From positions 1-33,966 of the forward strand of contig JAZDKR010000052.1 of assembly GCA_043802785.1 (NCBI GenBank): DNA of 33,966 bases. The letters are read 5' to 3'. The notes beneath the pieces are model-generated. The model did no database searches. It was given only the letters and a program-made list of their open reading frames with translations, and was not told the DNA's origin. This DNA is from Elusimicrobiota bacterium. Lineage in GTDB: Bacteria > Elusimicrobiota > UBA8919. This document shows, piece by piece, positions 262 to 32,600 of the stretch (positions are counted from its first letter, which is position 1; every line of letters begins with the position of its first letter). The position numbers and the translations under genes were made by a program.

Positions 262-2043
262 GTGATAGAAACATTTTGTAAAGAGGAAATAAAAAAGGAT
301 AAAAGTATAGCATATTTCTCGATGGAGATAGGTATTGATTCAAGAATTCCAACATACAGCGGTGGGCTTGGTGTTTTAGCCGGAGATACACTCAGATCCT
401 GTGCTGACCTGAAAGTGCCGATAGTTGGAATAACTCTGTTATATAAAAAAGGATATTTCTATCAGAAATTAGATGAACAAGGTAATCAAACAGAACTACC
501 CGCACAATGGACACCGTCGGATTTTTTAGAACCGTTGCCCGGAAAAATAAATGTAAAGATAGAAAATAGAGATGTCCTTGTTCGGGTGTGGCAGTACAAA
601 TTAAAATCCGTAGATGGGAATTATTTTGTTCCTATATTTCTTCTTGATACCGATGTTCCCGAAAACAGTGATTACGATAAGTCACTTACAGATTATCTTT
701 ATGGCGGAGATGAAAAATATCGGTTTGCACAAGAAATTATTTTGGGAATCGGTGGTGTACGGATGCTTCGTGAACTTGGGTATACTGACATAAAAAAATA
801 TCATATGAACGAAGGGCATTCAAGTTTATTGGTTTTGGAATTAGCAAGACCAGGTAGGTTCGCCTGCGGCGAAGAACTTAAAAAACAAGAAGAACCTTCG
901 TCGGTGCGCGATTTATGCGTTTTTACCACACATACACCTGTTCCGGCAGGTCATGACAAATTTTCATATGATTTAGTGAAAAATGTTCTGGGTGATTTTG
1001 TTTCGCTTGATACTCTTAAAATGCTTGCCGGTGAAAAAAATCTCAATATGACTTTGCTCGCACTAAATTCAGCAGGGTACATAAATGGTGTTGCAAAAAA
1101 ACACGGTGAAGTTTCTCGTGAAATGTTTCCGGGGTACCCGATTGATTCTATAACTAATGGAGTGCATCCATATACTTGGGTATCCGAAAGTTTTAGAAAA
1201 TTATACAATAAATACATTTCTGGTTGGCCAAAAGATCCTTTCACATTAAGAAATATAATGAGTATTCCAAAGACGGAAATATGGGATGCACATATGGGAG
1301 CAAAGAGAAAACTGATTGACTATGTTAATGATGAATCAAATGTCGGAATGAACTATGAAACACTCACAATAGGATTTGCAAGGCGGCTGTCCACATATAA
1401 AAGAGCAGGTCTTTTGTTTTTTGATATTGAGCGGCTTGTTAATATTTCCAAAAAAGCAGGAAAAATACAGGTTGTATTGGCGGGGAAAGCGCATCCGAAA
1501 GATATACATGGGAAGGAGTTAATAAAGAAAATCTTTGAATGTATCCGTAGAGTTAAAAAGGACATAAAGATAGTATATCTCGAAAATTACGATGTAGAAC
1601 TTGGGAAGATAATTACTGCCGGAGTTGATCTTTGGCTGAATACACCTTCAAGACCCAAAGAGGCATCCGGTACTTCCGGAATGAAAGCATCTCTTAACGG
1701 AGTTCCAAATTTTAGTATATTAGATGGTTGGTGGATAGAAGGATGTATTGAGGGCGTTACAGGATGGTCTATTGGGGAAAAAACAATTGGCGCTGTTAGG
1801 AATAAATCACGAGAGACGGATGTTCCATCTATATGGGGAATTTCTGAAACGGTTGAAGAAAATTCTGACGAAAAAGACGCTCATGATTTATACAAAAAAT
1901 TGGAAAATGTAATTATTCCGATGTTCTACAAAGATAGAGAACAGTGGCTAAGTATTATGCAATATTGCATTGCATTTAACGCCTCTTTTTTTAATACAAA
2001 CAGAATGGTTCACGAGTATGTATTGAATGCGTATTTAACATAG
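262..2043 (+). CDS. glgP: alpha-glucan (glycogen/maltodextrin) phosphorylase family, GT35
   Basis: SGGLGVLAGD motif and the PLP-lysine motif EASGTSGMK. GTG start with AGGAGG 8 nt upstream. Confidence 0.85.
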   Translation: MIETFCKEEIKKDKSIAYFSMEIGIDSRIPTYSGGLGVLAGDTLRSCADLKVPIVGITLLYKKGYFYQKLDEQGNQTELPAQWTPSDFLEPLPGKINVKIENRDVLVRVWQYKLKSVDGNYFVPIFLLDTDVPENSDYDKSLTDYLYGGDEKYRFAQEIILGIGGVRMLRELGYTDIKKYHMNEGHSSLLVLELARPGRFACGEELKKQEEPSSVRDLCVFTTHTPVPAGHDKFSYDLVKNVLGDFVSLDTLKMLAGEKNLNMTLLALNSAGYINGVAKKHGEVSREMFPGYPIDSITNGVHPYTWVSESFRKLYNKYISGWPKDPFTLRNIMSIPKTEIWDAHMGAKRKLIDYVNDESNVGMNYETLTIGFARRLSTYKRAGLLFFDIERLVNISKKAGKIQVVLAGKAHPKDIHGKELIKKIFECIRRVKKDIKIVYLENYDVELGKIITAGVDLWLNTPSRPKEASGTSGMKASLNGVPNFSILDGWWIEGCIEGVTGWSIGEKTIGAVRNKSRETDVPSIWGISETVEENSDEKDAHDLYKKLENVIIPMFYKDREQWLSIMQYCIAFNASFFNTNRMVHEYVLNAYLT

Positions 2044-11902: not shown

Positions 11903-12009
11903 TCAAGTTAGTTCCGATTTATCAGGATGACTTTTTTGTCGTCATTCCCGAATGGTTCTATCGGGAATCCATATGTTTATGTTTTGTTTACTTATGGATT
12001 CCTCTCCGA

Positions 12010-12288
12010 ATGTTTTTGTCGGGGATAACTACATATGAATGGGATTCAAAAAATATATCCCATATTTTGCAACACCAAGTAAGACCAGATGAAGTTGAAG
12101 AAGCATGTTATAATAATCCAGTTGTTCTTAAAACAAGAGGGAATTGTTATTTAGTGCTTGGTAGAAGCAATACAGGGAAATACTTATCTATTGTGGTTGC
12201 ACCAAAAGAAGAAGGCAAAACACGAGTTATAACAGCCAGAAATATGGACCACAAGGAAAGAAAACTTTTCACAAGAAAAAGGAAATAA
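12010..12288 (+). CDS. brnT: BrnT-like toxin (DUF497)
   Basis: YEWDSKN...H N-terminal signature, about 90 aa, followed 12 nt later by a BrnA-like gene. Confidence 0.65.
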   Translation: MFLSGITTYEWDSKNISHILQHQVRPDEVEEACYNNPVVLKTRGNCYLVLGRSNTGKYLSIVVAPKEEGKTRVITARNMDHKERKLFTRKRK

Positions 12289-12300
12289 GGAGATTGAAAA

Positions 12301-12498
12301 ATGAAAAAGATACCGAAATTTAAAACAGAAGCAGACGAATCAAAGTTCTGGGATGAGCACAGTTTCACTGATTTTATTGGAGATTTAGAGGAAGTTCATA
12401 TTGAATTTCCCAAACCCAAAAAACGGACTATTCCCATTCTGTTGGATGAAGTGAAAATACAAACAATTAAACAATTAGCATCTGCAAAAGACATATGA
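12301..12498 (+). CDS. brnA: BrnA-like antitoxin
   Basis: 65 aa with a ...ESKFWDEH... motif. RBS aaggag present. Toxin-first order is typical of brnTA. Confidence 0.65.
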   Translation: MKKIPKFKTEADESKFWDEHSFTDFIGDLEEVHIEFPKPKKRTIPILLDEVKIQTIKQLASAKDI

Positions 12499-12641
12499 TA
12501 CGGAACATTGGCAAAAATGTGGATAGTAGAGCGGCTTAAATGGGAAACATCACATTTAAAGCACAAATCACCATAAACAAATAAGTTCAATAATCCCAAG
12601 ATAGCAGTTTAGATTCTTTTAAATTTTTTAAAACTTTTTAC

Positions 12642-12670
12642 TTGACAATTTTGCTTAATTGTGCTACAAT
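12642..12670 (+). promoter_or_regulatory. sigma70-like promoter TTGACA-17-TACAAT upstream of nikR
   Basis: ttgaca at 12642-12647, a 17-nt spacer, tacaat at 12665-12670. Confidence 0.5.
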
Positions 12671-12688
12671 TATCAAAAAGGTGCTACT

Positions 12689-13102
12689 ATGAATAAATTA
12701 TTCAGGTTTGGTGTTTCATTGGAAAAGGATTTGCTTGATAAGTTTGATAAACTTATAAGATCCAGAAACTACACAAATCGTTCAGAAGCGTTTCGCGATT
12801 TAATTCGTCAGGAACTAATAAAGAAGGAATGGCAGGAGGGCAAGGAAATCGCCGGAGCCATAACCCTTATCTACAATCACCACAAAAGAGAACTTGGAAG
12901 TCATCTCACGGATGTCCAGCATGATTTTCACGACTTAATTATTTCAACCCAGCACATACATTTAGACCATGATAACTGTCTGGAAATAATTGCAGTTAAA
13001 GGAAAATCCAATGAAGCCCAGAAACTATCGGATATATTAAAGTCAATAAAAGGCGTGAAACACTCTGCTTTGAGTATGTCAACAACAGGGAAGGGTGTTT
13101 AA
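12689..13102 (+). CDS. nikR: nickel-responsive transcriptional regulator NikR
   Basis: Ribbon-helix-helix N-terminus (RFGVSLEKDLL...) and a C-terminal metal-binding domain with H..H and HxH clusters. Confidence 0.85.
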   Translation: MNKLFRFGVSLEKDLLDKFDKLIRSRNYTNRSEAFRDLIRQELIKKEWQEGKEIAGAITLIYNHHKRELGSHLTDVQHDFHDLIISTQHIHLDHDNCLEIIAVKGKSNEAQKLSDILKSIKGVKHSALSMSTTGKGV

Positions 13103-13125
13103 TTTTTTTTGTTTTATCGGTAGCA

Positions 13126-13177
13126 CGATTTTTATTTTTGTAGCAAAAAAGTGCGAAATAAAAATCGGATTTTTATT
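13126..13177 (+). promoter_or_regulatory. candidate NikR operator: cgatttttattt-N18-aaataaaaatcg dyad plus an overlapping perfect palindrome aataaaaatc-g-gatttttatt
   Basis: Perfect 12-bp inverted repeat with an 18-bp spacer between nikR and the downstream uptake genes, overlapping a -10-like tattat. Confidence 0.45.
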
Positions 13178-13339
13178 ATGAGGAGGTGAGTGAAATGAGT
13201 AGCAACAAAGATTCACCGCAAAAAAAGGCGGAAGCATAGCCCCGTTGAGAGAACTATACCCCGCCGAAAGTATTATAGCAAGTTTGAGATTTGGTTGCAA
13301 GTGGAAAATTATCTCGCCAAAAGCGGGACGGAGGAATAA

Positions 13340-13987
13340 ATGAAGATATTTATGATAGTTTTTTGTATATTGTTTTTTACATATTCGGTTGTGTTTGCGG
13401 CACATCCGTTAACAACGGATGACATCGGAATCGTTGAAATTGGCAAGTACGAATTGGAAGTTGGTTATGATAACTGCAAGAGAGAAAGTGAATTGCGAAA
13501 TCACTCCTGCGGGATTTCGCTGAAACACGGCATTACGGAAAAAATGGATGTTGGGATTTCATTTCCGTATCAGATAGAGCCGAAACCGGAGGAACCATTC
13601 GGAACTACTACGCTCGGCTTCAAATTTCTTTTATTGAAGGATATTTTTGCTTTAACCGTCAATAATGAACTCGGTTCAAGCGAATACTTTATCAACGGGA
13701 TTTTTACACGAGAGGTTCAGTCCATAACCATTCACGCAAATATCGGTTATGCGGTTTCCGGCGATGAAAACACGGAAGGCGAAATAATTCACAGTTCCGC
13801 GTTTGAATACCCGTTATCAAAAATAGATTTGGTCGGCGAAATTATCGGCGAAAAAATAGGGTTTCTGAATTACCTATTAGGCGTAAGATATAAAGTTGCC
13901 GATATTTCTTCGCTGAATTTTGCGTACGGGAACGGGTTCAGAAAAACGGATGAAAAAATTGCTTTTGGCTTTCATACGGAATTTTAA
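13340..13987 (+). CDS. putative outer-membrane beta-barrel protein (signal peptide, C-terminal Phe)
   Basis: Cleavable N-terminal signal peptide, alternating amphipathic strands, and an ...GFHTEF end typical of OMPs. Confidence 0.55.
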   Translation: MKIFMIVFCILFFTYSVVFAAHPLTTDDIGIVEIGKYELEVGYDNCKRESELRNHSCGISLKHGITEKMDVGISFPYQIEPKPEEPFGTTTLGFKFLLLKDIFALTVNNELGSSEYFINGIFTREVQSITIHANIGYAVSGDENTEGEIIHSSAFEYPLSKIDLVGEIIGEKIGFLNYLLGVRYKVADISSLNFAYGNGFRKTDEKIAFGFHTEF

Positions 13988-13997
13988 GGGGGATAAT

Positions 13998-14669
13998 ATG
14001 CATATACCTGACGGATATTTAGGACCGGTAACTTGCGGATTTTTCTATGTAGTTATGTTGCCGATATGGATGATTGCTTCAAAGATTGTAAAAAAAACGC
14101 TGAGAGCAAAGCAGGTGCCGCTTCTGGCAATAGGTGCTGCATTCAGTTTTGTGATTATGATGTTCAATGTGCCGATTCCTGGCGGGACAACTGGACATGC
14201 GGTAGGTGGTGTTCTCGTTGCGATACTTCTCGGACCGTGGGCGGCATGTATTGCCATTACTGTCGCCTTGGTGGTTCAAGCGTTATTATTTGGTGATGGT
14301 GGACTTACGGCAATTGGTGCCAACTGTTTTAACATGGCATTTGTGCTTCCATTTGCCGGATATTATATCTATAAGGCGATTAGTTGCAATGCTCCAATTG
14401 ACTCAAAAAGGAGAGTTATCGCTGCTGGGATTGCCGGTTATGTAGCACTTAATCTTGCCGCAGGACTTACTGGATTTGAGTTTGGGATTCAATCGCTTCT
14501 CCACAGAACGGCAAGCGGACAAGCACTCTATTGCCCATATGGATTGACTGTTGCGCTGTCTGCAATGTTGGGAGAACACCTGTTGGTTTTTGGATGGGTT
14601 GAAGCGATAGTGACTGCTCTTGTAATAAAATATCTGCTGAAACAATCGCCGGAACTTCTTGGTATATAA
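13998..14669 (+). CDS. cbiM: ECF-type Ni/Co transporter substrate-specific component CbiM/NikM
   Basis: Invariant N-terminal MHIPDG with a preceding RBS aaggggga. The upstream-extended ORF from 13920 is rejected. Confidence 0.9.
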   Translation: MHIPDGYLGPVTCGFFYVVMLPIWMIASKIVKKTLRAKQVPLLAIGAAFSFVIMMFNVPIPGGTTGHAVGGVLVAILLGPWAACIAITVALVVQALLFGDGGLTAIGANCFNMAFVLPFAGYYIYKAISCNAPIDSKRRVIAAGIAGYVALNLAAGLTGFEFGIQSLLHRTASGQALYCPYGLTVALSAMLGEHLLVFGWVEAIVTALVIKYLLKQSPELLGI

Positions 14670-14926
14670 GATATAATAGAAACTATAACCCCGAAGGGGT
14701 GGAATTATTATAGCAACAGGTAACAGGTAACAAACCACAACCCCGAACCGAGCAGATTCACCGCAGGTGAAGGGGTGAAATTATTATAGGGGTGGAAATA
14801 ATGTCACCCCGTCGGGGTTTAGTTGTGATTGTTTAACAAGATCTATAATAATATCATCCCTTCGGGATTTAATGTCAAGGGATTTAAGGGACATGACACG
14901 ATCGAAGCGAATAGGAGGAAAACCTG
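14670..14926 (+). repeat. 257-bp intercistronic block of degenerate direct repeats with CCCC-N-GGGG hairpins
   Basis: The ggggtgRaattattatag box occurs three times; hairpins include ccccgaagggg, accccgtcggggt and atcccttcgggat (UUCG-type loop). Confidence 0.5.
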
Positions 14927-15262
14927 ATGAAAATTACTACTAAACTTTGGCTTGGCTTGGCGATATTAGTTATACTTTCTCCGCTCGGACTTATTTTGCC
15001 GGAGCATTTTAAGGCGGGAAGTGCCTGGGGAGAATGGGGTGCTGATGAGATGCAAAAACTTGTCGGCTATATTCCTCAAGGACTTGAAAAACTTTCAAGT
15101 ATATGGAATGCACCAATGCCGGATTATGCTTTCAAGGGCTGGGAAGAAAAAGGACTCTCACAGTTGAGTTTTGCGTACATAATATCGGCTGTCATAGGAA
15201 TTGGAATAATTGTGTTCGTGATATTGGGCATGGGAAAGTTATTAGTTAAGAAAACTTTATAG
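14927..15262 (+). CDS. PDGLE-domain small membrane protein (CbiN/NikL-like transporter component)
   Basis: Two TM helices flanking a YIPQGLEKL (PDGLE-like) motif. RBS aggagg present. Confidence 0.65.
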   Translation: MKITTKLWLGLAILVILSPLGLILPEHFKAGSAWGEWGADEMQKLVGYIPQGLEKLSSIWNAPMPDYAFKGWEEKGLSQLSFAYIISAVIGIGIIVFVILGMGKLLVKKTL

Positions 15263-15281
15263 CCACAGATTACACAGATTT

Positions 15282-15368
15282 GTCATTGCGAGGAGTCCCG
15301 CTGCAAGCGGGACGACGAAGCAATCTCAAAGAATGGGATTGCCACGGGACTTCGTCCCTCGCAATGAC
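15282..15368 (+). mobile_element. complete MITE-like element, 87 bp, TIRs GTCATTGCGAGG / CCTCGCAATGAC
   Basis: Perfect terminal inverted repeats; an internal hairpin cccgct-gcaa-gcggg; cgaagcaatctc and gattgccacggg boxes shared with other copies. Confidence 0.7.
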
Positions 15369-15382
15369 ATTTTGTAAAACTT

Positions 15383-15407
15383 TGTGTTTTTCTGTGTCCA
15401 TCTGTGG
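15383..15407 (+). promoter_or_regulatory. leader motif tgtgtttttctgtgtccatctgtgg 7 nt upstream of the cbiQ ATG
   Basis: Third copy of the motif class seen at 3993 and 4750. Confidence 0.3.
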
Positions 15408-15414
15408 ACACACT

Positions 15415-16245
15415 ATGTCAAGAGGCAATAACTTTATAGAGCAATCTATTACAGACATTCTATCATTTTTAAAAGAATCCGTCTTTGCCGACGAGTATGC
15501 GGTTAAGAATGGTTTTTTGCAATCGTTAGATCCGAGAATAAAGACAATAACTTTTTTAATGTTCATTGTTCTGATAATTCTTACAAAGAATATTCGCATT
15601 CTGTTTTATCTATATGCGTTGTGTTTGTTGCTGAGTTCCGTCTCTAAAATTAATTTGTGGTTTTTCTTAAAAAGAACATGGATATTTATTCCCTTGTTCT
15701 CAGTTTTCATAGCGATTCCCGCCCTGTTCAGTATTTTTACACCAGGTGAAACATTAACCACCTTAAACATAGTGGGACTCAAACTTATAATTACCCGTCA
15801 GGGATTTTTCGGTGCATCTTTATTTGTTACGCGGGTCACAACATCAGTATCTTTTGCGGTTCTTTTAACTCTCACAACCAAGCATTTTGAATTACTTAAG
15901 GTTCTGCGTATTTTTAAGGTTCCTCAGATATTTGTGATGACGGTCGGCATGTGCTACAGATATATTTACCTTTTTGTAGAGATTATTGAGAATACTTATC
16001 TTGCAATGAAAAGCCGTGTTGGTCCAAAGATTCATTACAAAAGAGGACAGCATCTCGTTGCATGGAATATTGCATCTCTTTGGCAGCGGTCATATCAATT
16101 AAATGAAGATGTGTATAAGGCAATGCTTTCCAGGGGATATTGCGGAGAATCGGTTGCAATGGATGATTCCAATATCAAAGTAGAAGATTGGCTGTGGTTG
16201 TGTTTAGTTGTACTAATTTTTATTTGTGGACTATGGATAATCTAA
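15415..16245 (+). CDS. cbiQ: ECF transporter transmembrane (T) component CbiQ
   Basis: Polytopic membrane protein matching the CbiQ/EcfT family. Start is placed after the MITE; the ORF beginning at 15280 would read through the element. Confidence 0.75.
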   Translation: MSRGNNFIEQSITDILSFLKESVFADEYAVKNGFLQSLDPRIKTITFLMFIVLIILTKNIRILFYLYALCLLLSSVSKINLWFFLKRTWIFIPLFSVFIAIPALFSIFTPGETLTTLNIVGLKLIITRQGFFGASLFVTRVTTSVSFAVLLTLTTKHFELLKVLRIFKVPQIFVMTVGMCYRYIYLFVEIIENTYLAMKSRVGPKIHYKRGQHLVAWNIASLWQRSYQLNEDVYKAMLSRGYCGESVAMDDSNIKVEDWLWLCLVVLIFICGLWII

Positions 16246-17045
16246 TTTTTGAATTAAACGATGTACATTTTTCATACTTAAGAAAATTTCCTGCACTATG
16301 CGGTATAGATATAAACATCAGGCAGGGAGAAAAAATAACTCTCATCGGTGCAAATGGTTCCGGAAAATCAACGCTTTTACATATATTTGACGGACTCATT
16401 TTTCCTGATAAAGGTACCATCAAAGTTTTTGGCAAAGAATTCAAGGAAAATGATTTTTGTAGCGAGGATTTCTCAAAAAATTTTAGAAAAAAAGTTGGGC
16501 TTGTTTTTCAGAATCCAGATATCCAGTTGTTTTGTCCGACGGTAAAAGAGGATATTGTTTTTGGACCGCTACATCTCGGAGTTGAAAAAGAGGAGATTCA
16601 AAAACGATTAGATGAACTTGTTCACCTGTTAGATATTAAAGATTTATTGGCTCGGTCACCCCACCATCTAAGCATAGGGGAAAAACGAAAGGTTGCCATT
16701 GCCTCAACTTTGATAATTCATCCTGATGTTTTAATTCTTGACGAACCAACTGCTGGATTAGACCCTTTAACGACGAGGCATATTATTGATTTACTTTTAC
16801 AAGAAAACCAATCCGGTAAAACTATCATTACGGCAACCCACGATTTGCATATTGTTGAGGAAATATCGGATACAGTTTATGTCTTTAGCCGTGAAAAAAA
16901 AATAATCAAATTTGGCAAACCTGATGAAATTCTAAAAGACGAACAATTGCTTCATGACCATAACCTAAGGCATATTCATAGCCACCGGCATAAAGACAAA
17001 ATTCACATTCATCCCCATCTGCATTTGGAACATCATATGGATTAG
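16233..17045 (+). CDS. cbiO: ECF transporter ATPase CbiO with a His-rich C-terminal tail
   Basis: Walker A GANGSGKST, signature LSIGEKRKV, Walker B ILILDEPT. Tail HDHNLRHIHSHRHKDKIHIHPHLHLEHHMD. Overlaps the cbiQ stop codon. Confidence 0.88.
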   Translation: MDNLIFELNDVHFSYLRKFPALCGIDINIRQGEKITLIGANGSGKSTLLHIFDGLIFPDKGTIKVFGKEFKENDFCSEDFSKNFRKKVGLVFQNPDIQLFCPTVKEDIVFGPLHLGVEKEEIQKRLDELVHLLDIKDLLARSPHHLSIGEKRKVAIASTLIIHPDVLILDEPTAGLDPLTTRHIIDLLLQENQSGKTIITATHDLHIVEEISDTVYVFSREKKIIKFGKPDEILKDEQLLHDHNLRHIHSHRHKDKIHIHPHLHLEHHMD

Positions 17046-19944: not shown

Positions 19945-20039
19945 CGAAAAATACTTGACAAATTTTATAAAGTATGTTATCTTTATAGTAAAGAAGTAAA
20001 GAAGTAAAAAAGTAAGGAATTTGGAAAAGGAGGTTGTCC

Positions 20040-20327
20040 ATGCAAAAGATTATTATGGCTCATATGAGTTCTAAAGCGCAGGTCACTGTCCCTAAGGAAG
20101 CGAGACAGATTCTTGGAATAGGACAGTGTAACATTCCTATTGGCTTCATTGTTGAACCCGAAACGCATACCGTTAAACTTACCAGAGTTAATGTCACATC
20201 TGCAGATGAAGATTTCACAGAAGAAGAATATAAAAAACTTCGTAAACTCGCTAAAAAACCGGGTGGGAAAATTTTTACAACTGCCGCCGCAGTTATTAAA
20301 TATCATAAAAAACTCACTAAAAGTTAA
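20040..20327 (+). CDS. AbrB/MazE/SpoVT-type antitoxin
   Basis: ...SSKAQVTVPKEARQILGI... swapped-hairpin motif. RBS aaggagg present. Its TAA overlaps the next ATG, giving a TAATG junction. Confidence 0.55.
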   Translation: MQKIIMAHMSSKAQVTVPKEARQILGIGQCNIPIGFIVEPETHTVKLTRVNVTSADEDFTEEEYKKLRKLAKKPGGKIFTTAAAVIKYHKKLTKS

Positions 20328-20602
20328 TGAAATATTTATTTAGGCCCCGTTATATTCGCAGCATTAAAAAACTTGATAAAAGCCGAGCAGCAAATGTTCA
20401 GAAGACATTTGAATCGCTCGTTAGATTTTTCCAAACAGGTGAAAAACCATTTGGACTCGGGCTCAAGCAATTACGACGTGATATATGGGAAGTTCGTGCC
20501 GGATTACTTGACCGCATAATTTTTCGTCGCACAAAAAATACAGTTGAATTCATTATTGCAGGAACACATAATGAAATCAAAAGATACTTAAATTCTTTGT
20601 AA
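20327..20602 (+). CDS. RelE/ParE-superfamily toxin
   Basis: 91 aa with ...GLKQLRRDIWEVRAGLLDRIIFRR...FIIAGTHNEIKRYL, the RelE/ParE-like pattern. Translationally coupled to the antitoxin. Confidence 0.55.
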   Translation: MKYLFRPRYIRSIKKLDKSRAANVQKTFESLVRFFQTGEKPFGLGLKQLRRDIWEVRAGLLDRIIFRRTKNTVEFIIAGTHNEIKRYLNSL

Positions 20603-20654
20603 AATAATGTGAATAGGACAGAGATTGCTACAGTCGATCCCCGATTAAAAATTT

Positions 20655-20708
20655 CCCGAGTAGGTTCGCCTGGGGCGAAGGGGACAAGTTTATCGGCTTC
20701 GCAATGAC
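20655..20708 (+). mobile_element. MITE remnant: GTAG-ttcgcc-tggg-gcgaa hairpin plus right TIR TTCGCAATGAC
   Basis: Same boxes as the other family members. Confidence 0.4.
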
Positions 20709-20724
20709 AGGCAAAGATAAATTA

Positions 20725-21826: not shown

Positions 21827-23539
21827 ATGGTAAAAAAAGTACCGTCGGATATTGAAATAGCGCAGGCAATTGAACTTAACCCGATAATTGATATTGCGGA
21901 AAAAATCGGTATCAAAAGTGATGAGTTGGAATTATACGGTAACTACAAAGCAAAAATAAAACTTGAAATTCTCCAACGGATAAAAAATAATCATCAAGCG
22001 AAATATATTGATGTAACTGCTATAACGCCTACACCACTCGGCGAGGGAAAAACTGTTACAACGATAGGGCTTTCACTCAGTCTATCAAAAATCGGAAAAA
22101 AAGTTATAACAACAATCAGACAGCCGTCGTTAGGTCCCGTGTTCGGAATAAAAGGCGGTGCTGCTGGTGGAGGTTATTCTCAGGTTTTACCGATGGAAGA
22201 TTTTAATCTGCATCTTACCGGTGACGTTCACGCTGTTTCAATTGCACATAACTTGTGTGCTGCATTCGTGGACAATTCTCTTCACAAAGGAAATAAACTC
22301 AATATGGATATGAACAACATATTGTGGCGAAGGGTTGTTGATGTTTCGGACAGAGCGTTAAGGAATATAAAAATAGGGCTTGGAACAAAAGAAGATGGTA
22401 TCCCCCGTGACTCAGGGTTTGATATATCTGTTGCATCCGAAGTTATGGCGATACTTGCGCTAACAACTTCGCTGAAGGATTTAAGAGAACGATTGGGAAG
22501 AATTGTTGTTGCATTTACTCCTGACGGTAACCCAGTCACTACTGAGGATTTGCAGGTTGCTGGCTCTATGGCTGTATTGTTAAGGGATGCTATTAAGCCG
22601 AATCTTCTGCAGACGACAGAACACACGGCTTGTTTCGTTCACGCTGGTCCTTTTGCGAACATCGCACATGGCAACAATTCAATTCTTGCCGACCTTATGG
22701 CAGTAAAACTTACCGATTATGTCGTTACGGAAAGTGGATTCGGTGCCGACTGCGGAATGGAAAAGTTTATGAATATAAAATGCAGATATTCAGGACTTAT
22801 TCCTAACTGCGTCGTTATGGTTTGCTCCATCCGTGCTCTGAAAATGCATTCGGGAAAATTTAATGTTGTTGCCGGCAGACCATTGGAAGAAGGACTGATT
22901 AAAGAAAACCTGACTGCTATTGCCGAAGGAATTTGTAATCTTGAAAAGCATATTGAAAACGCAAAGATGTTCGGTGTGCCAGTTGTGGTTGCAATAAATA
23001 AATTCTCAACAGATACGGATAAAGAGATAGAATTTGTCAGATTGAAGTCATTAGAAGCCGGCGCCGATGATGTTGCACTCTCTACGGTTTGGGAGAATGG
23101 TGGTGACGGTGGCAGGGAATTAGCAGAAGCAGTTGTAAACGCCTGCGAGAAAAAATCTTCAAACGAATTCCGGTTTTTATATCCACTTGATATGCCGATA
23201 AAAGAAAAAATTCAAACAATTGCAACAAAAATATACGGAGCGAAGGATGTTCAGTACACACCGCAGGCAGAAGAAAAAATTAAACTTTACACCAAACTTG
23301 GCTGGGCTCAACTTCCGCTCTGTATGGCGAAGACGCATCTTTCATTATCACACGAGCCGACATTAAAAGGAAGACCAACAGGATTCACATTACCCGTTAA
23401 AGATATAAGGGCATCTATTGGTGCGGGTTTTTTGTATCCTTTGTGCGGCGAGATGAGAACAATGCCAGGGCTTCCATCTGTTCCCGCAGGCACAAAAGTT
23501 GATATTGATAAAGACGGAAAAGTCGTAGGATTGTTTTAA
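21827..23539 (+). CDS. fhs: formate--tetrahydrofolate ligase
   Basis: PTPLGEGKTVTTIGL P-loop region and full-length match to the FTHFS family. RBS ggagg present. Confidence 0.95.
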   Translation: MVKKVPSDIEIAQAIELNPIIDIAEKIGIKSDELELYGNYKAKIKLEILQRIKNNHQAKYIDVTAITPTPLGEGKTVTTIGLSLSLSKIGKKVITTIRQPSLGPVFGIKGGAAGGGYSQVLPMEDFNLHLTGDVHAVSIAHNLCAAFVDNSLHKGNKLNMDMNNILWRRVVDVSDRALRNIKIGLGTKEDGIPRDSGFDISVASEVMAILALTTSLKDLRERLGRIVVAFTPDGNPVTTEDLQVAGSMAVLLRDAIKPNLLQTTEHTACFVHAGPFANIAHGNNSILADLMAVKLTDYVVTESGFGADCGMEKFMNIKCRYSGLIPNCVVMVCSIRALKMHSGKFNVVAGRPLEEGLIKENLTAIAEGICNLEKHIENAKMFGVPVVVAINKFSTDTDKEIEFVRLKSLEAGADDVALSTVWENGGDGGRELAEAVVNACEKKSSNEFRFLYPLDMPIKEKIQTIATKIYGAKDVQYTPQAEEKIKLYTKLGWAQLPLCMAKTHLSLSHEPTLKGRPTGFTLPVKDIRASIGAGFLYPLCGEMRTMPGLPSVPAGTKVDIDKDGKVVGLF

Positions 23540-23550
23540 GGACTGTAAAT

Positions 23551-23730
23551 TTGTAGTTGCTCAATTTATTGAGCGCCTTTAGTAGGTTTGTAGTTGCTCA
23601 ATTTATTGAGCGCCTTTAGTGGGTTTGTAGTTGCTCAATTTATTGAGCGCCTTTAGTGGGTTTGTAGTTGCTCAATTTATTGAGCGCCTTTAGTAGGTTT
23701 GTAGTTGCTCAATTTATTGAGCGCCTTTAT
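23551..23730 (+). repeat. tandem array of 5 x 37-bp REP-like units (ttgtagttgctcaatttattgagcgcctttagtRggt)
   Basis: Exact period of 37 bp. Each unit carries GTAGTTGC plus the hairpin gctcaa-ttta-ttgagc. No spacers, so it is not a CRISPR array. It ends 33 nt before the ATG at 23764. Confidence 0.8.
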
Positions 23731-23763: not shown

Positions 23764-25881
23764 ATGGATTGGACAAAATTTGAATTAAAACCAAAAGAAG
23801 AAATTATTGCTCTCCTGCAAGGGGTCAATAATATCTTTGTTATCAGTTGCAAAAAATGTTTTAAGGAACTTAATCCTTCGGATGACATTACCGGTTCTGA
23901 TGAATGTCCTGCGGTTTCCAAAATTGTTGAGGAGGCGAATAAAAAAATTGTTGGTTGCATTGATGTAGATTTTCTTTGCAATAAATTATTAACAGAAAAA
24001 CTTATCCCGAAAGATTTTCAATCGGCAGAAGTTATATGTGTTATTTCCTGTGGAATAGGTGTTCAAACCGTTGCAAATTTAATTAAAGATAAGCCGGTGT
24101 ATTGCCTGACAAATTCCGTATTTAAGACGGGACATAGCGGTGAGCACGGAATGGCTTTGGCTGAAGAAAGGTGCGGGGCCTGTGGGGATTGCGTATTAGA
24201 TATTACCGAGGGAATATGTCCTGTAACTAATTGTGCCAAGCAATTACGCAATGGTTCCTGCGGCGGCGCAAAAAATGGTAAATGCGAGGTAAAAAATTCA
24301 GATGGTAGCCAGCGTGACTGTGCTTGGGAAAAAATATACAAACGCTTGAATGCAGTAGTATCGGGGTCTCCTCGCTTGAATGCACGAGAAAAAACAATCG
24401 CGGGAGAACAATCCGTTGAAATTAAGGACCATTCCAAACCGGATTTTGATACAATAAATTCTTGTAGTATTGATATTCGCAATAAACGACAGCAGAGTTT
24501 TTATGGTGGTCTTTATCCAAAAGAGAATAAAAAACAAACTGAAAATAAACCAATTCAACCTTTTCCCGAACCCAAATTTCTAATTATTCCACTATCACAA
24601 CACATCGGCAAAATTTGTGAACCGCTCGTGAAAGTTGGCGATAGAGTAAAAGTTGGACAGAAAATCGGCGATGTATCATCCGAATTTTTGGGTGTACCTG
24701 TCCATTCCAGTGTGAGTGGAAAAGTCATCGAGATTGAACTTAGAAACCATCCGTTAAGTATTGAAAAAGTTCTGGCAATAACCATTGAGTCAGATGGTAA
24801 AAATGAAGTTCAAAAAAGCGAAACATTATGTATTGATGAAAATTGGCAACCCGAGCAGGCGATTAAAATGATTCGCGAGGCAGGAATTGTGGGATTAGGT
24901 GGCGCACAATTTCCTACTTACGCAAAACTGTGTCCACCGAAAAATAAACCGATAGATACTGTTATCCTTAACGGTGCTGAATGTGAACCATATTTGACTG
25001 CGGATTATCGTGTTATGCTGGAAAAGCCGGAAGAATTATTAGCAGGTTTGCGTGCGATAATGAAAATCTTAAATGTTGAAAATGGTGTTATTGCGATTGA
25101 AGATAATAAAGAAGACGCGATAGAAAGGTTAAATAATGTCATTGCGAGTCGCGAAGCAACGAAGCAATCTCAAACAAATAAAATCAAAGTTGTAGAACTC
25201 AAAACAAAATATCCGCAGGGTTCGGAACGGATGCTAATCAAAAAAATCTTAAATAGAGATGTCCCGCTTGGAGGATTGCCCTACGATGTCGGCGTAATAG
25301 TGAACAATGTAAGCACGGCGGTAGCGGTCTACGAAGCATTATATAAAGGCATATCTTTGATAAAGCGAGTAATTACCGTCACGGGCGATAACTGTGTCCG
25401 ACCTGGTAATTACGAGATAAAAATCGGTACACTATTTCAGGATATCATGGAGTATTGTTTTTCTCTTCCCTACCCCTTCACCTGCGGTGAACCTACTTGG
25501 CTATCCCCTACCCCCTATTCACTAAAGATGGGCGGTCCGATGATGGGTATATTACAGAATAATCTTGATGTTCCGGTAATAAAAGGAACTACGGGAATTT
25601 TGGTGTCTGCCAAACCAGACATACAATCTGATTTATCAAGAAGTTGTATCAAATGCGGTCGTTGTGTAGATGCCTGTCCGATGGAATTGCTCCCTTTATA
25701 CTATGCTTTTTATGTTGACCAAGTAGGTTCGCCAGTGGCGAAAAAACAGCAGTGGCAAGAAACAAAACAGTTAGGAGTTATGAACTGTATAGAGTGCGGA
25801 TGTTGTGATGATGTATGCCCCGCAAAAAGGTCAATAGTTGGTGCTGTTAAAATAGCAAAAAAGGCAGTTCATAGTTCATAG
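23764..25881 (+). CDS. RnfC-like NADH-binding FeS subunit of methylene-THF reductase with an N-terminal MetV-like (MTHFR C-terminal-type) zinc-ribbon domain
   Basis: N-terminal ...CGACGDC...CP...CGGAKNGKCEV..., paralogous to the metV gene at 26025. Central RnfC/NuoF-like core (GLGGAQFPT..., LNGAECEPY...). Two C-terminal CxxCxxCxxxCP ferredoxin motifs. Confidence 0.8.
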   Translation: MDWTKFELKPKEEIIALLQGVNNIFVISCKKCFKELNPSDDITGSDECPAVSKIVEEANKKIVGCIDVDFLCNKLLTEKLIPKDFQSAEVICVISCGIGVQTVANLIKDKPVYCLTNSVFKTGHSGEHGMALAEERCGACGDCVLDITEGICPVTNCAKQLRNGSCGGAKNGKCEVKNSDGSQRDCAWEKIYKRLNAVVSGSPRLNAREKTIAGEQSVEIKDHSKPDFDTINSCSIDIRNKRQQSFYGGLYPKENKKQTENKPIQPFPEPKFLIIPLSQHIGKICEPLVKVGDRVKVGQKIGDVSSEFLGVPVHSSVSGKVIEIELRNHPLSIEKVLAITIESDGKNEVQKSETLCIDENWQPEQAIKMIREAGIVGLGGAQFPTYAKLCPPKNKPIDTVILNGAECEPYLTADYRVMLEKPEELLAGLRAIMKILNVENGVIAIEDNKEDAIERLNNVIASREATKQSQTNKIKVVELKTKYPQGSERMLIKKILNRDVPLGGLPYDVGVIVNNVSTAVAVYEALYKGISLIKRVITVTGDNCVRPGNYEIKIGTLFQDIMEYCFSLPYPFTCGEPTWLSPTPYSLKMGGPMMGILQNNLDVPVIKGTTGILVSAKPDIQSDLSRSCIKCGRCVDACPMELLPLYYAFYVDQVGSPVAKKQQWQETKQLGVMNCIECGCCDDVCPAKRSIVGAVKIAKKAVHSS

Positions 25882-25943
25882 TTCATAGTTCGTAGTAGAG
25901 GCGGATGACGGATAACGAATAACAGATTTTGATTTTATTAGTT

Positions 25944-25965
25944 GTAGTTGCCCAATTTATTGGGC
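25944..25965 (+). repeat. REP-like unit with compensatory stem (GTAGTTGC-gcccaa-ttta-ttgggc)
   Basis: Single copy of the 23551-type unit. The stem differs at two positions on each arm, and pairing is preserved. Confidence 0.55.
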
Positions 25966-26024
25966 GCCGTTGACCTACGCAATACGCAATACGTTTTTAT
26001 CTGTTTTGTATCGCCCTTAAAAAA

Positions 26025-26663
26025 ATGCTAACAATCAAACTTAAACCCGTAGATAATTTGCGGTCATATCTAACAGAAAAAAATCTGATAATACGATGCC
26101 TCGGTTGCCGCGAAGTTCTATTCCCGGAAGAACAGGTGAACAATTTTAAGGAGGGACTGTCCCCGCAGGGGACTGTCCCATATGATATTGACGATATTGC
26201 AACCGATTATTTGTGTAATCCTGACTATACCCAGACGCGGCTGAAATTGTGGCAGAAGAAAATTGACGAAGCGACAAGTATAATAATTTTTTCATGCGGG
26301 GTTGGTGTGCAAGTTGTATCTTCGTTGATGAATAGACATACTTATGCCGGGGCTGATACTGTTCATCTCAATGGTTTTCAGGGTTTAACACCTACAGAAT
26401 ACGATTGTGATCTTTGCGGTGATTGCCTTTTAAATTATACCGGTGGACTTTGTCCTATAACTGCCTGCTCAAAATCGTTGCTTAATGGTTGTTGCGGCGG
26501 TGCCAAAAACGGTAAGTGCGAAGTTAATAAGGAACTTGATTGCGGTTGGGAGAAAATTTATAATCGGCTAAAGGAATCCAGTAAAGTTGTCCGAACTGAC
26601 TCCCTTGGAGAAACAACTTCAACGACTATAAAACTGCGAGATTATTCAAAAACAATACCGTAA
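26025..26663 (+). CDS. metV: MetV-like zinc-ribbon subunit of methylene-THF reductase
   Basis: ...CDLCGDC...CP...CGGAKNGKCEV... core, sitting directly upstream of metF. Confidence 0.7.
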   Translation: MLTIKLKPVDNLRSYLTEKNLIIRCLGCREVLFPEEQVNNFKEGLSPQGTVPYDIDDIATDYLCNPDYTQTRLKLWQKKIDEATSIIIFSCGVGVQVVSSLMNRHTYAGADTVHLNGFQGLTPTEYDCDLCGDCLLNYTGGLCPITACSKSLLNGCCGGAKNGKCEVNKELDCGWEKIYNRLKESSKVVRTDSLGETTSTTIKLRDYSKTIP

Positions 26664-26716
26664 AACAGCAGTAAAGTAGTTGGCAGTGGTGTGGTTGGCA
26701 GTGGGCAGGAACATGC

Positions 26717-26818
26717 CGTCATTCCTGCGAAGGCAGGAATCCAGTGTCGTTTTCTTTTCTGGATTCCCGATTTGGCCTGTCCCCGAAAGTAGTAGTCGGG
26801 GAGCACTCGGGAATGACG
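26717..26818 (+). mobile_element. MITE-like element with TIRs CGTCATTCC / GGAATGACG
   Basis: Same type as 17224. Carries the internal hairpins ggaatccag...ctggattcc and ccccgaaagtagtagtcgggg. Confidence 0.5.
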
Positions 26819-26912
26819 ACATAAGGGCGGTTAGCCAACGAACGTCCCCCAATCGCTAACCACAAACGAAACCTCTTTTGGAAAAAGAGGAATATTAACG
26901 ACGGAGAAAAAC

Positions 26913-27791
26913 ATGAAACTTACGGAACTGTTTGCTAATGGAAAATTTGTTATTACTTCGGAAATTGGTCCACCGAAAGGTTGGCAGATTGAGAAGTGTC
27001 TGAATGAAGCGGAACATCTCAAAGATAAAGTGGATGCTATAAATGTTACTGATAACCAATCTTCAGTAATGCGGTTTGGTTCACTTGCAACCTGTCATTT
27101 TTTGAAAGACAGGAATATTGAGCCGGTATTTCAAGTTGTCTGCCGCGACAGAAACAGGATTGCTCTCCAATCGGATATTTTAAGTGCCGCTGCTTTTGGT
27201 ATTGAAAACTTGCTTTTGTTGACCGGTGACCACACAACACTCGGCGACCATCCACAGGCGAGGCCGGTGTTTGATTTGGACTCCGTTTCCTTAATTTATG
27301 CAGTAAAAAAGTTGGAGGAAGGTGTTGACCTCGCAGGCAATAAACTTGAAGGCGAGCCACCGAAATTTGCAATTGGTGCGGTTGTGTCACCGTGCTCTGA
27401 CCCTGTGGAGCCGCAACTTATAAAAATGGAGAAAAAAATAAAAGCAGGCGCGGAATTTTTTCAGACACAGGCAATTTACGAAGTTGAAAAATTTGTAAAG
27501 TTTATGGAAAAGGCGAAACAATTCGGAGCACCTGTTATGGCAGGGATAGTAATCTTAAAATCCGTCGGTATGGCAAAATATATGAATGAAAATGTTGCCG
27601 GCGTTTATGTTCCGGACAATTTAATTGAAGAGTTGAAAAAAGATAAAGAGAAGACAAAATCTGGGCAAACAGGAATAGAAATTGCTACACGACTTATAAA
27701 AGAACTCAAGCCGTACTGTCAGGGTGTTCACATAATGCCGCTCGGCTGGGACGATAAAGTTCCAAAAATTCTTGAACTCGCAGGGTTGTAA
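26913..27791 (+). CDS. metF: 5,10-methylenetetrahydrofolate reductase
   Basis: ...FVITSEIGPPKG..., ...VDAINVTDN... and ...LLLTGD... hallmark motifs. RBS ggag present. Confidence 0.9.
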   Translation: MKLTELFANGKFVITSEIGPPKGWQIEKCLNEAEHLKDKVDAINVTDNQSSVMRFGSLATCHFLKDRNIEPVFQVVCRDRNRIALQSDILSAAAFGIENLLLLTGDHTTLGDHPQARPVFDLDSVSLIYAVKKLEEGVDLAGNKLEGEPPKFAIGAVVSPCSDPVEPQLIKMEKKIKAGAEFFQTQAIYEVEKFVKFMEKAKQFGAPVMAGIVILKSVGMAKYMNENVAGVYVPDNLIEELKKDKEKTKSGQTGIEIATRLIKELKPYCQGVHIMPLGWDDKVPKILELAGL

Positions 27792-27801
27792 CAATATGCC
27801 T

Positions 27802-27905
27802 GTCATTGCGAGCCCCGTCCCGCCTTGGCGGGATCGGGGCGAAGCAATCTCAAAATTACCGATGGAAAAGAGAGATTGCCACCCCGCCATTGAATCAGTG
27901 GCGGG
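27802..27905 (+). mobile_element. complete MITE-like element, 104 bp, TIRs GTCATTGCGAG / TCGCAATGAC
   Basis: Perfect TIRs. Carries the hairpin cccgcc-ttg-gcggg and the cgaagcaatctc and gagattgccac boxes. Confidence 0.7.
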
Positions 27906-27985
27906 TCGCAATGACAAATTAGTTCAATAGCCAAACCGTTACCGAAATTGTGAAGTATTACAAGGTTTTTTTCCAGTATTAACGT

Positions 27986-32450: not shown

Positions 32451-32600
32451 TGGTGTCACCCTGAATCCGCCGAGGCGGATGAAGGGTCTGCTTGTTCGTC
32501 GGAAGACTGGATTCTGCGTCCCGCTATGGTGGAACGCAGCAATCTCAGTTTTATTTCAATGTTGTGATTGCCACGGCGATTTTATCGCCTCGCAATGACC
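32451..32600 (+). mobile_element. MITE-like element (right half intact: cagcaatctca, gattgccacgg, TIR CCTCGCAATGAC) inside the 5' leader
   Basis: Same boxes as the other family members. The left part has diverged but keeps the hairpin accct-tga-atccgcc-gag-ggcggat-gaa-gggt. Confidence 0.5.

Follow-up and report, generated by a model that had tools for sequence, protein, structure and literature searches.

The closest described relative of the locus analyzed here is the type III methylene-tetrahydrofolate (methylene-THF) reductase (MTHFR) of Acetobacterium woodii (Awo_c09290-09310), whose cluster encodes RnfC2, MetV, and MetF and also contains fhs, fchA, and folD (Poehlein et al., 2012; Bertsch, 2015). 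RnfC2 of A. woodii is an RnfC with a 220-aa N-terminal extension that is 59% similar to MetV (Poehlein et al., 2012, PMC3315566), and the same MetV-like domain is described by Oppinger (2021, PMC8760232). The soluble enzyme was first purified from A. woodii, where it is a heterotrimer with 2 FMN and approximately six [4Fe-4S] clusters, uses NADH directly, and does not reduce ferredoxin; its NADH:methylene-THF activity and 1:1:1 stoichiometry have been reported for A. woodii only (PMC8760232). Type II enzymes (MetVF) of Clostridium ljungdahlii, Thermoanaerobacter kivui, and Eubacterium callanderi likewise combine MetV and MetF, with FeS/Zn and flavin, but they have no RnfC2 subunit to take in NADH and do not use this cofactor. 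Membrane-bound RnfC (RsxC), represented by chains 9eri_C, 7zc6_C, and 8ahx_C, is a protein of approximately 440 aa without a MetV domain and is encoded in an rnfCDGEAB operon.

The window, that is, the whole stretch of 33,966 nucleotides (34 kb) analyzed here, derives from a metagenome-assembled genome of a different, diderm phylum, the Elusimicrobiota. It carries these three genes in the A. woodii order, preceded by fhs and all on the + strand, exactly at the coordinates at which the first-pass annotation had placed them, and its identification as an A. woodii-type MetF/MetV/RnfC2 module is borne out by domains, gene order, Cys ligands, and the grouping of the core. The genes and domains are as follows:

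21827..23539, + strand: fhs, formate-tetrahydrofolate ligase, 570 aa (Pfam FTHFS, 865 bits; NCBIfam NF010030, 818 bits, above cutoff)
23764..25881, + strand: rnfC2, 705 aa, fusion of a MetV-like domain and an RnfC core (Pfam, TIGR01945)
23764..24363, + strand: MetV-like N-domain of rnfC2, approximately aa 1-200 (PF12225, 84.7 bits, residues 123-198; 12 invariant Cys)
24496..25881, + strand: RnfC-type core of rnfC2, aa 245-705 (Pfam; TIGR01945, 475 bits)
26025..26663, + strand: metV, small FeS/Zn subunit, 212 aa (PF12225, 97.6 bits, residues 107-191; 12 invariant Cys)
26913..27791, + strand: metF, catalytic flavin subunit of methylene-THF reductase, 292 aa (Pfam MTHFR, 132.7 bits)

Among 80 genome loci examined, the order rnfC2-metV-metF is found in all 22 of the other RnfC2-type loci with enough downstream DNA. 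Fhs is 75-85% identical to the Fhs that adjoins rnfC2 in two Elusimicrobiota loci (L001 and L003), MetF is 76-84% identical to its counterparts in Elusimicrobiota loci and 61-73% to those in Bacillota type III loci, and MetV is 43-50% identical to the MetV directly following rnfC2 in 22 other genomes. The nearest non-self homolog of RnfC2 among the best 120 matches is only 53% identical. The RnfC2 proteins of Blautia and Marvinbryantia, both of known type III lineages, are 46-47% identical to it at 99-100% coverage and serve as proxies for Awo_c09290, which is absent from the 120 matches listed and from the 80 loci; equivalence to the type enzyme is therefore judged from the published description and these Blautia-type proxies. 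As in A. woodii, the window module combines an RnfC2 bearing a MetV-like extension (of approximately 200-220 aa) and an RnfC core with FMN/NADH and two [4Fe-4S] motifs, a MetV with conserved Cys residues, and a MetF of the MTHFR family. The window differs from the A. woodii cluster in that it has neither fchA nor folD, and its RnfC2, approximately 46% identical to Bacillota RnfC2, carries three lineage-specific, repeat-derived loop insertions.

The N-terminal domain of RnfC2 is a true homolog of MetV: residues 1-215 align to the stand-alone MetV with 37% identity over 193 residues (E = 2e-35), far beyond chance, and domain annotation of the 705-aa protein returned the MetV-type PF12225 together with RnfC_N, Complex1_51K, and two [4Fe-4S] motifs. 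Twelve Cys residues are invariant across 128 RnfC2 N-domains and four stand-alone MetVs, and every one is kept in both window modules (C29, 32, 72, 96, 137, 140, 143, 152, 157, 166, 174, and 186 in RnfC2; C25, 28, 64, 91, 128, 131, 134, 143, 148, 157, 165, and 173 in MetV), including the N-domain, for which the first-pass annotation had allowed that the ligands might be lacking. That annotation had also taken the domain for a feature missing from the RnfC-like subunit of A. woodii, arising when metV was duplicated locally and fused, which could alter the FeS wiring or the MetV:RnfC2 stoichiometry. The domain is indeed present and homologous to the downstream metV, but the proposal is refuted by the publication of the same extension for A. 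woodii RnfC2 (PMC3315566, PMC8760232) and retains next to no probability. The MetV-RnfC fusion is common to 120 of the 120 best database matches, at approximately 100% coverage, and to 22 genome loci across phyla. RnfC2 N-domains and stand-alone MetVs form separate groups in 300/300 bootstraps, and the window N-domain clusters with other N-domains (50% identity, versus 39% to its own MetV) and is sister to that MetV in none of the 300. On these sequence comparisons, the MetV duplication behind RnfC2 is ancient rather than local, and the N-domain is the standard RnfC2 architecture and not an acquisition of this lineage; no change in wiring or stoichiometry is implied.

The core contains an RnfC_N barrel (residues 245-346), the FMN/NADH-binding Complex1_51K domain (370-524), SLBB (536-565), and two [4Fe-4S] motifs (626-688; C628/631/634/638 and C675/678/681/685). 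Membrane RnfC has the same RnfC_N, Complex1_51K, SLBB, and ferredoxin domains, and residues 240-703 align end to end to the RnfC chains of solved complexes at 271-367 bits (367 for 9eri_C and 345 for 7zc6_C), with the FMN/NADH residues and the [4Fe-4S] Cys residues aligned; because the core shares this full domain set, automatic annotation calls RnfC2 "RsxC." The motifs GxGGAxFP and NGAECEP, the FMN/NADH residues (G374/G377/G379/G380/A381/P384 and N403-P409), and all eight core Cys residues are invariant in alignment A2. Unlike membrane RnfC, the window protein is encoded next to metV-metF, and its core groups in a clade separate from that of RnfC. In a core-only NJ tree, a single split unites all 33 fusion-type cores, and 167 of 200 bootstraps place the window protein in a clade made up solely of RnfC2 proteins, with at least 20 members. 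Strict monophyly of all 33 cores was recovered in 51-53 of 200 NJ bootstraps (~26%), and in a core-only search the scores of ordinary RnfC proteins are not far below those of RnfC2-type proteins. Thus, there is moderate support for a grouping of the core with RnfC2-type proteins and not with ordinary membrane-complex RnfC, as the earlier reading had anticipated.

By homology, the FMN in the RnfC-type core would be the site of NADH oxidation. From there, electrons would travel via the pair of [4Fe-4S] clusters at the C-terminus of RnfC2 to the FeS centres of the N-terminal MetV-like domain, and onward via those of the stand-alone MetV. The final acceptor would be the flavin of MetF, which would reduce methylene-THF to methyl-THF; the reaction would also be able to proceed backward.

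At 705 aa, RnfC2 is the longest among its close relatives (median 669 aa), in part because three short hairpin repeats have been inserted in frame. The repeat features in and around the module, and in one further gene, are as follows:

850..873, + strand: in-frame family B copy, 24 nt, encoding PGRFACGE within the unrelated alpha-glucan phosphorylase gene (262-2043; motif matched exactly at 854-874)
23550..23729, + strand: 4.9 tandem copies of the 37-bp unit TTTGTAGTTGCTCAATTTATTGAGCGCCTTTAGTAGG in the fhs-rnfC2 gap (TRF score 346, 98% matches)
25138..25171, + strand: family A hairpin copy (GTCATTGCGAG...GAAGCAATCTC) in rnfC2, encoding part of VIASREATKQS (net 7-8 additional codons relative to homologs)
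25477..25500, - strand: family B hairpin copy (CCRAGTAGGTTCRCCNNNGGYGAA), 24 nt, in rnfC2, encoding FTCGEPTW (window-specific insertion)
25719..25742, + strand: family B copy, 24 nt, in rnfC2 between the two [4Fe-4S] motifs, encoding (D)QVGSPVA(K) (window-specific insertion)
26664..26912, + strand: metV-metF gap of 249 bp with many hairpin repeats, e.g., GTCATTCCTGCGAAGGCAGGAATCCAG and CACTCGGGAATGACGAC (sequence read)
27801..27916, no single strand: two family A repeats in opposite orientation directly 3′ of metF at the mlaE junction (motif matches at 27802 and 27841)

The family A motif GTCATTGCGAG occurs seven times in the window, against 0.03 expected, and its partner motif seven times, against 0.53 expected; one copy, that in rnfC2, is coding, and the remaining copies lie outside confidently coding sequence. 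The coding copy corresponds to residues 463-469, which are specific to the window in comparison with 127 RnfC2 homologs and align to an 8-aa gap in the RnfC chains of the PDB. The family B motif occurs six times, against 0 expected, with direct copies at 854, 11113, 14752, and 20660; three of the six are coding (850-873, 25477-25500, and 25719-25742). The copy at 25477-25500 coincides exactly with a window-specific insertion (residues 572-579, relative to the same 127 homologs) and matches the intergenic copy at 14748-14776 at 90% over 29 nt, and the copy at 25719-25742, an inverted copy of it, overlaps the window-specific insertion at residues 651-658. A fourth in-frame repeat copy is the clean 8-aa insertion in the phosphorylase, which is window-specific among 120 homologs (the best being 75-77% identical). 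All three net insertions in rnfC2 comprise whole numbers of codons without a stop codon, and both family B copies in this gene measure exactly 24 nt. In an AF2 model, in which the Cys-rich part of RnfC2 has low confidence, the three sites are coil: pLDDT dips to 65 at the family A site, is 51 at residues 572-579, and is below 50 at residues 653-659. By these comparisons, rnfC2 has gained three in-frame insertions, of approximately eight codons each, from two hairpin-repeat families dispersed in intergenic DNA, and the insertions lie in predicted surface loops. The three insertions could impair RnfC2 activity.

The gaps of the cluster are also occupied by hairpins. Each 37-bp unit between fhs and rnfC2 contains the hairpin GCTCAAT-TT-ATTGAGC, its 29-nt core occurs five times against 0 expected, and the RNA of this gap folds with z = -5.5; the corresponding gap in L001 and L003 is just 6 bp. 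The metV-metF gap, in which positions 26804-26824 are an inverted copy (90%) of 11934-11954, matches no Rfam family and shows no conservation with the approximately 209-bp gaps of L003 and L004. A further inverted hairpin pair lies in intergenic DNA at 15282-15369.

Among described repeats, the window insertions resemble the Rickettsia palindromic elements (RPEs), which are dispersed palindromic repeats that occupy intergenic DNA as well as unrelated conserved genes, where they preserve the frame, are absent from orthologs, and occupy positions compatible with the fold, as the predicted loops would be here. On the other hand, the window units are far shorter (24 nt in family B and approximately 34 nt in family A, versus roughly 100-150 bp) and occur in a different phylum, and RPEs encode a conserved peptide, whereas no two of the three coding family B copies share both frame and orientation (PGRFACGE, FTCGEPTW, and QVGSPVA), so that no conserved peptide results. 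The insertions may thus be likened to miniature RPEs, by analogy and not by membership. Repetitive extragenic palindromic (REP) sequences, which RAYT transposases mobilize, are similarly short (20-40 nt) imperfect hairpins that are present in many copies and frequently form inverted pairs in intergenic DNA, but they are extragenic by definition, and four window copies are coding; the 34-kb window contains no RAYT gene, and no transposase or mobilization mechanism was identified for its repeats.

Taken as a whole, the cluster is very probably a canonical type III MTHFR (RnfC2-MetV-MetF) with an ancient fusion and three repeat-derived in-frame insertions in rnfC2, and its sequence suggests that it is probably still functional. 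The high density of foreign insertions, three within one 2.1-kb gene, and the identity of only 53% to the best RnfC2 homolog, as compared with 76-85% for MetF and Fhs to their relatives, could instead reflect relaxed selection on a decaying subunit that is no longer active. This is quite improbable, given that the reading frame is intact over 705 aa, that all columns invariant across 31 diverse RnfC2 proteins are kept, including 20/20 Cys residues and the FMN/NADH motifs, and that a comparable insertion is tolerated in the phosphorylase gene; the insertions also lie in coil between well-predicted elements of the model. With the insertions in predicted loops and all conserved cofactor residues intact, the enzyme would probably still function. 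It has also been hypothesized that RnfC2 replaces RnfC as a docking subunit on the membrane Rnf complex and wires the reductase directly to ion translocation (Poehlein et al., 2012, PMC3315566), an idea revived by Oppinger (2021, PMC8760232). In favor of docking, the core shares 42-50% identity with genuine RnfC and over its full length matches the RnfC chains of solved Rnf complexes, and Rnf has been reported in acetogenic Elusimicrobia; however, the soluble, directly NADH-dependent A. woodii enzyme and the separate clade of RnfC2 cores argue against it, as does the absence of rnf membrane genes (RnfD/G/E/A/B) from the 34-kb window and from the surroundings of rnfC2 in L001, L003, and L004, and such docking is improbable here.

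What the type III module is used for is a separate question. The window is devoid of folD, fchA, acs, fdh, and rnf genes, metF is followed by mlaEFD where L001 and L003 have fchA and folD, and the Elusimicrobia-type loci L004 and L005 are likewise without nearby fchA and folD. These features would suit a module that does not serve reductive acetogenesis but operates mainly oxidatively or for folate-dependent one-carbon metabolism in general, e.g., in methyl-group or acetate oxidation or in methionine or purine supply, in an organism without a complete Wood-Ljungdahl pathway. Such a role is rather unlikely, because in L003 the module adjoins CdhD, an AcsE-like pterin-binding protein, acetate kinase, fchA, and folD, known type III enzymes come from acetogens (PMC8760232), and Wood-Ljungdahl and Rnf-dependent acetogenesis has been predicted for several lineages of the Elusimicrobia; 5 kb upstream of the module, a NikR-regulated Ni/Co ECF transporter adds a weak circumstantial point in the same direction. 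With folD, fchA, acs, and rnf absent from the window, the use of the Wood-Ljungdahl pathway by this organism, which the first-pass annotation had deduced from the cluster, is plausible, as judged from relatives and the literature.

Consequently, the module in this Elusimicrobiota genome is an ordinary copy of the known acetogen reductase, in which only the in-frame hairpin insertions are unusual. The new point is that hairpin repeats dispersed through intergenic DNA have also been inserted in frame within conserved genes.

The four open reading frames described in the first-pass annotation were recovered without any shift in position, all on the forward strand:

21827-23539, forward strand: fhs, 570 aa, FTHFS (Pfam)
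23764-25881, forward strand: rnfC2, 705 aa, PF12225 and RnfC domains (Pfam)
26025-26663, forward strand: metV, 212 aa, PF12225 (Pfam)
26913-27791, forward strand: metF, 292 aa, MTHFR (Pfam)

In the 705-aa RnfC2 protein, PF12225 (the MetV-type “MTHFR C-terminal” domain) covers residues 123-198 and is followed by the RnfC_N (245-346), Complex1_51K (370-524), SLBB (536-565), and di-cluster ferredoxin (626-688) domains of the core (Pfam). The protein also exceeds the TIGR01945 (rnfC) cutoff of NCBIfam, which contains no family for MetV; these two circumstances account for its public name, “RsxC.” The MetV-like domain proposed at the N-terminus of this RnfC-like protein is genuine, in that residues 1-215 can be aligned to the stand-alone MetV with 37% identity (E 2e-35).

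The assignment of the cluster to the A. woodii-type methylene-THF reductase (type III, the soluble NADH-dependent RnfC2/MetV/MetF enzyme), which had already been suggested in the first-pass annotation, is supported by the Cys ligands, the grouping of the core, and a shared gene order. All 12 of the conserved Cys ligands expected in the N-terminal domain are present in both MetV-type modules of the window, and they are invariant in 128/128 RnfC2 N-terminal domains and 4/4 stand-alone MetVs. Twelve Cys residues per module would fit two [4Fe-4S] clusters and one Zn(Cys)4 site. The core carries eight invariant ferredoxin-type Cys residues, and the clusters predicted for these and for the two MetV-type modules come to six, as reported for the A. 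woodii enzyme, which was purified with RnfC2, MetF, and MetV at 1:1:1, contains 2 FMN and about six [4Fe-4S] clusters, and uses NADH but does not reduce ferredoxin (PMC8760232).

A search with the core only (1.8 billion representatives) returned fusion-type proteins as the top three matches, with ordinary 440-aa RnfC close behind. Because ordinary RnfC scored so near to the RnfC2 types, a neighbor-joining (NJ) tree was built from the core residues of 169 sequences, with 200 bootstrap replicates. All 33 fusion-type cores formed one split in this tree. The exact 33-core split had low bootstrap support (51-53 of 200; 26%), whereas 167/200 replicates placed the window protein in a clade made up purely of RnfC2 types with at least 20 members, and 142/200 in one with at least 30. 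The window core shows a mean identity of 51% to RnfC2 cores vs. 42% to RnfC cores. The placement of the window core with RnfC2-type proteins rather than with the membrane-complex RnfC is thus likely, the clade of at least 20 members lending it moderate support.

The MetV-like domain had also been presented as a difference from A. woodii, which is contradicted both by the descriptions of such an extension in A. woodii RnfC2 (Poehlein et al., 2012, PMC3315566; Oppinger et al., PMC8760232) and by the homologs; fusion of MetV to RnfC in one subunit is the established design of type III reductases and not a novelty. PF12225 and the RnfC domains occurred in 120/120 of the best hits to the window protein, at ~100% coverage and lengths of 653-823 aa; these hits include Blautia and Marvinbryantia as well as MAGs labelled Elusimicrobiota, Endomicrobiia, Firestonebacteria, Aerophobetes, and Syntrophomonadaceae. 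Species-representative genomes were scanned as well; among the best 80 loci, none of them from Acetobacterium, 22 matched over the full length, namely those in Elusimicrobia UBA5214, Blautia, Oliverpabstia, Choladousia, Sporobacter termitidis DSM 10068, Oscillospiraceae, Faecousia, and Alkalibaculum. When the scan loci were pooled with the context loci L001 and L003 (Elusimicrobiota relatives) and L004 (an Elusimicrobia-type locus), the order fused MetV domain and RnfC core, metV, metF was found in 22/22 distinct loci with enough downstream DNA. An internal metV duplication and fusion had further been suggested for the window protein. However, in a tree of 23 N-terminal domains and 23 MetVs, the N-terminal domains and their cognate MetVs separated in 300/300 bootstraps, and the window N-terminal domain was sister to its own MetV in 0/300, which rules out a recent local copying of metV into rnfC2. 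Judged from these sequences, the duplication and fusion were a single event that predates the spread of the family rather than one in the window lineage.

Genes of the rnfC2 type were also seen on two short contigs, one assigned to a “Thermoplasmatota archaeon” bin (P0008, 3.9 kb) and the other to a “Prevotella sp.” bin (L012, 6 kb), for which mis-binning seems more likely than true occurrence in those taxa. One Lachnospiraceae MAG (L011) contains rnfC2-metV-metF at 10001-13463 and, 2.5 kb upstream, a second metV-metF pair at 5961-7522 (39-44% identity); therefore, the genes of type II (MetV and MetF without RnfC2) and type III reductases may be neighbors.

By homology, the FMN of the Complex1_51K-type domain would receive electrons from NADH and pass them through the two C-terminal [4Fe-4S] clusters to the FeS centres in the MetV-like fusion domain, from which they would reach the FeS centres of the stand-alone MetV, the MetF flavin, and finally methylene-THF. 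The motif residues required for this proposed path are all conserved in the window proteins. An AlphaFold2 model of RnfC2 (mean pLDDT 77, pTM 0.74) presents the core at high confidence and the Cys-rich segment 120-170 at low confidence, as expected because the model has no metal cofactors; a sequence search yielded no solved structure of a MetV-type domain, whether of MetV or of the N-terminal domain.

None of folD, fchA, acs, fdh, or the rnf membrane genes is present in the 34-kb window. The Elusimicrobiota relatives carry the genes in the order fhs-rnfC2-metV-metF-fchA-(x)-folD, and L003 has those for CdhD, acetate kinase, and an AcsE-like pterin-binding protein immediately upstream of the module; in the Elusimicrobia-type loci L004 and L005, only fhs is found near it. 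Acetogenesis by the Wood-Ljungdahl pathway and Rnf has been predicted for the groundwater Elusimicrobia lineages VII-IX (Meheust et al., 2020). This prediction and the gene context in relatives make use of the Wood-Ljungdahl pathway by the window organism plausible; the window genes alone do not demonstrate the pathway. Identity to the Elusimicrobiota relatives is uneven, at 76-84% for MetF and 75-85% for Fhs (48% in L004 and L005); the window MetF is still 61-73% identical to those of Bacillota, and RnfC2 and MetV reach only ~43-55% against the compared loci (L001, L003-L005, and L006-L026). RnfC2 is on record from an Elusimicrobiota MAG, on a contig that the window covers in full, and the mlaE/F/D genes downstream of the cluster are consistent with a diderm organism. 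The window also encodes an alpha-glucan phosphorylase, DapA, DapB, a P-type ATPase, a radical SAM-SPASM protein, toxin-antitoxin pairs, and a polyprenyl synthase, together with a transporter that is probably for nickel or cobalt uptake, which fits Ni or corrinoid enzymes without being specific to them:

12010-12498: toxin-antitoxin-like pair, BrnT and CopG antitoxin
12659-17045: NikR-type regulator, unannotated 215-aa ORF, then CbiM/PDGLE/CbiQ/CbiO ECF transporter
20034-20602: pair of an unannotated 97-aa ORF and a weak ParE-like toxin match

The gaps of the cluster and several other intergenic regions are rich in repeats, including two dispersed hairpin families, A and B:

23550-23729, fhs-rnfC2 gap: a 37-bp unit repeated almost perfectly in tandem (4.9 copies); every unit contains the hairpin GCTCAAT-TT-ATTGAGC
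26664-26912 (metV-metF gap, 249 bp) and 27792-27985 (metF-mlaE gap): hairpin repeats of the GTCATTCCTGCGAAGGCAGGAATCCAG type and family A inverted pairs
10880-11140, 14690-14870, 15280-15370, 20620-20710, and 32530-32600, intergenic: mixed arrays made up of several families of short hairpin repeats
11113, 14752, and 20660, intergenic: family B copies

No further copy of the 37-bp unit is present elsewhere in the window. Its array stops 34 bp before the rnfC2 start, in a gap that measures 6 bp in the Elusimicrobiota relatives and whose RNA is unusually stable (z = -5.5); candidate explanations for the array are a variable-number tandem repeat, an operator array, and an mRNA element. The metV-metF gaps of L003 and L004 are similarly long (~209 bp) and share no sequence conservation with that of the window. 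A scan of the cluster for sigma-70 promoters and terminators gave no more sites than shuffled sequence. Rfam at gathering thresholds matched nothing in the whole window, the metV-metF gap included, and thus no riboswitch or leader in the long gaps. Pfam matches the CbiQ ORF (TTG start 15280) only from residue 79 onward, so that its 5′ part is probably repeat DNA that does not code for protein.

Copies of both families also lie in frame within genes. RnfC2 (705 aa vs. a homolog median of 669) contains five private insertions relative to 127 RnfC2 homologs, three of which coincide with dispersed repeats found by a whole-window repeat search; those at aa 42-45 and 202-210 have no repeat match. 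The in-frame copies are as follows:

25138-25171, rnfC2: family A, encoding ...VIASREATKQS... (spanning peptide ...VIASREATKQSQ...)
25477-25500, rnfC2: family B, orientation opposite to 25719-25742, encoding FTCGEPTW (...PFTCGEPTWL...)
25719-25742, rnfC2: family B, orientation opposite to 25477-25500, encoding ...QVGSPVA... (...VDQVGSPVAK...)
850-873 (motif 854-874), alpha-glucan phosphorylase ORF 262-2043: family B, encoding PGRFACGE

The three RnfC2 sites are coil by DSSP in the AlphaFold2 model, where pLDDT falls locally to 65, 51, and 53 and the blocks on either side score 77-93. The phosphorylase copy provides an independent test of insertion: PGRFACGE is a clean 8-residue private insertion against homologs that are 75-77% identical, although comparison with PDB homologs (~35% identity) seemingly gives no net insertion. 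A second private insertion of the phosphorylase relative to 120 homologs (1786-1851; 22 aa, IGAVRNKSRETDVPSIWGISET) matches no repeat in the window.

The unit of family B is a 24-nt hairpin, CCRAGTAGGTTCRCCNNNGGYGAA, whose motif occurs six times in the window vs. 0 expected. By inspection, 4/6 of its frames lack a stop codon, and each of the three coding copies is read in a different open frame or orientation. Family A consists of GTCATTGCGAG ... GAAGCAATCTC on either side of a variable stem, and its motifs occur seven times each (0.03 and 0.53 expected); apart from the copy in rnfC2, they are intergenic, some in inverted pairs (e.g., 15282-15369 and 27801-27916). None of 84 loci from other genomes contains the motifs of either family, and family B had a single match in JGI metagenome contigs, after a stop codon in an unrelated high-GC contig, which is probably due to chance; the elements therefore appear to be lineage-specific. 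No transposase or RAYT gene was found in the window.

The closest precedent is provided by the Rickettsia palindromic elements (RPEs), which are inserted in frame into conserved genes (reviewed in PMC10969869). RPEs are 100-150 bp long and encode a conserved peptide, whereas the window elements are 24-34 nt and resemble repetitive extragenic palindromic (REP) sequences in form. We lean toward a model in which REP-like hairpins of 24-34 nt have spread into coding as well as intergenic DNA as a miniature, non-rickettsial counterpart of RPEs. In this model, a unit length of 24 nt, divisible by three, and open reading in 4/6 frames would explain why copies are retained in conserved enzymes as surface loops of eight residues.

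The architecture of the reductase is already standard and acetogenesis in Elusimicrobia already predicted, and the cluster itself adds little. Automatic annotation as RsxC/RnfC can nevertheless cause metabolic reconstructions to miscount Rnf complexes and to overlook that the methyl branch of these diderm bacteria is NADH-linked, a point that alters the ATP yield predicted for them. The new point, a moderately interesting side finding, is the in-frame hairpin insertions, with three copies in RnfC2 and one in the glucan phosphorylase within 34 kb. Those in RnfC2 constitute a small natural experiment on which loops tolerate 8-residue additions. If REP-like spread is the correct explanation, such elements would be a source of lineage-specific protein loops, and they hint at an RPE-like process outside Rickettsia.
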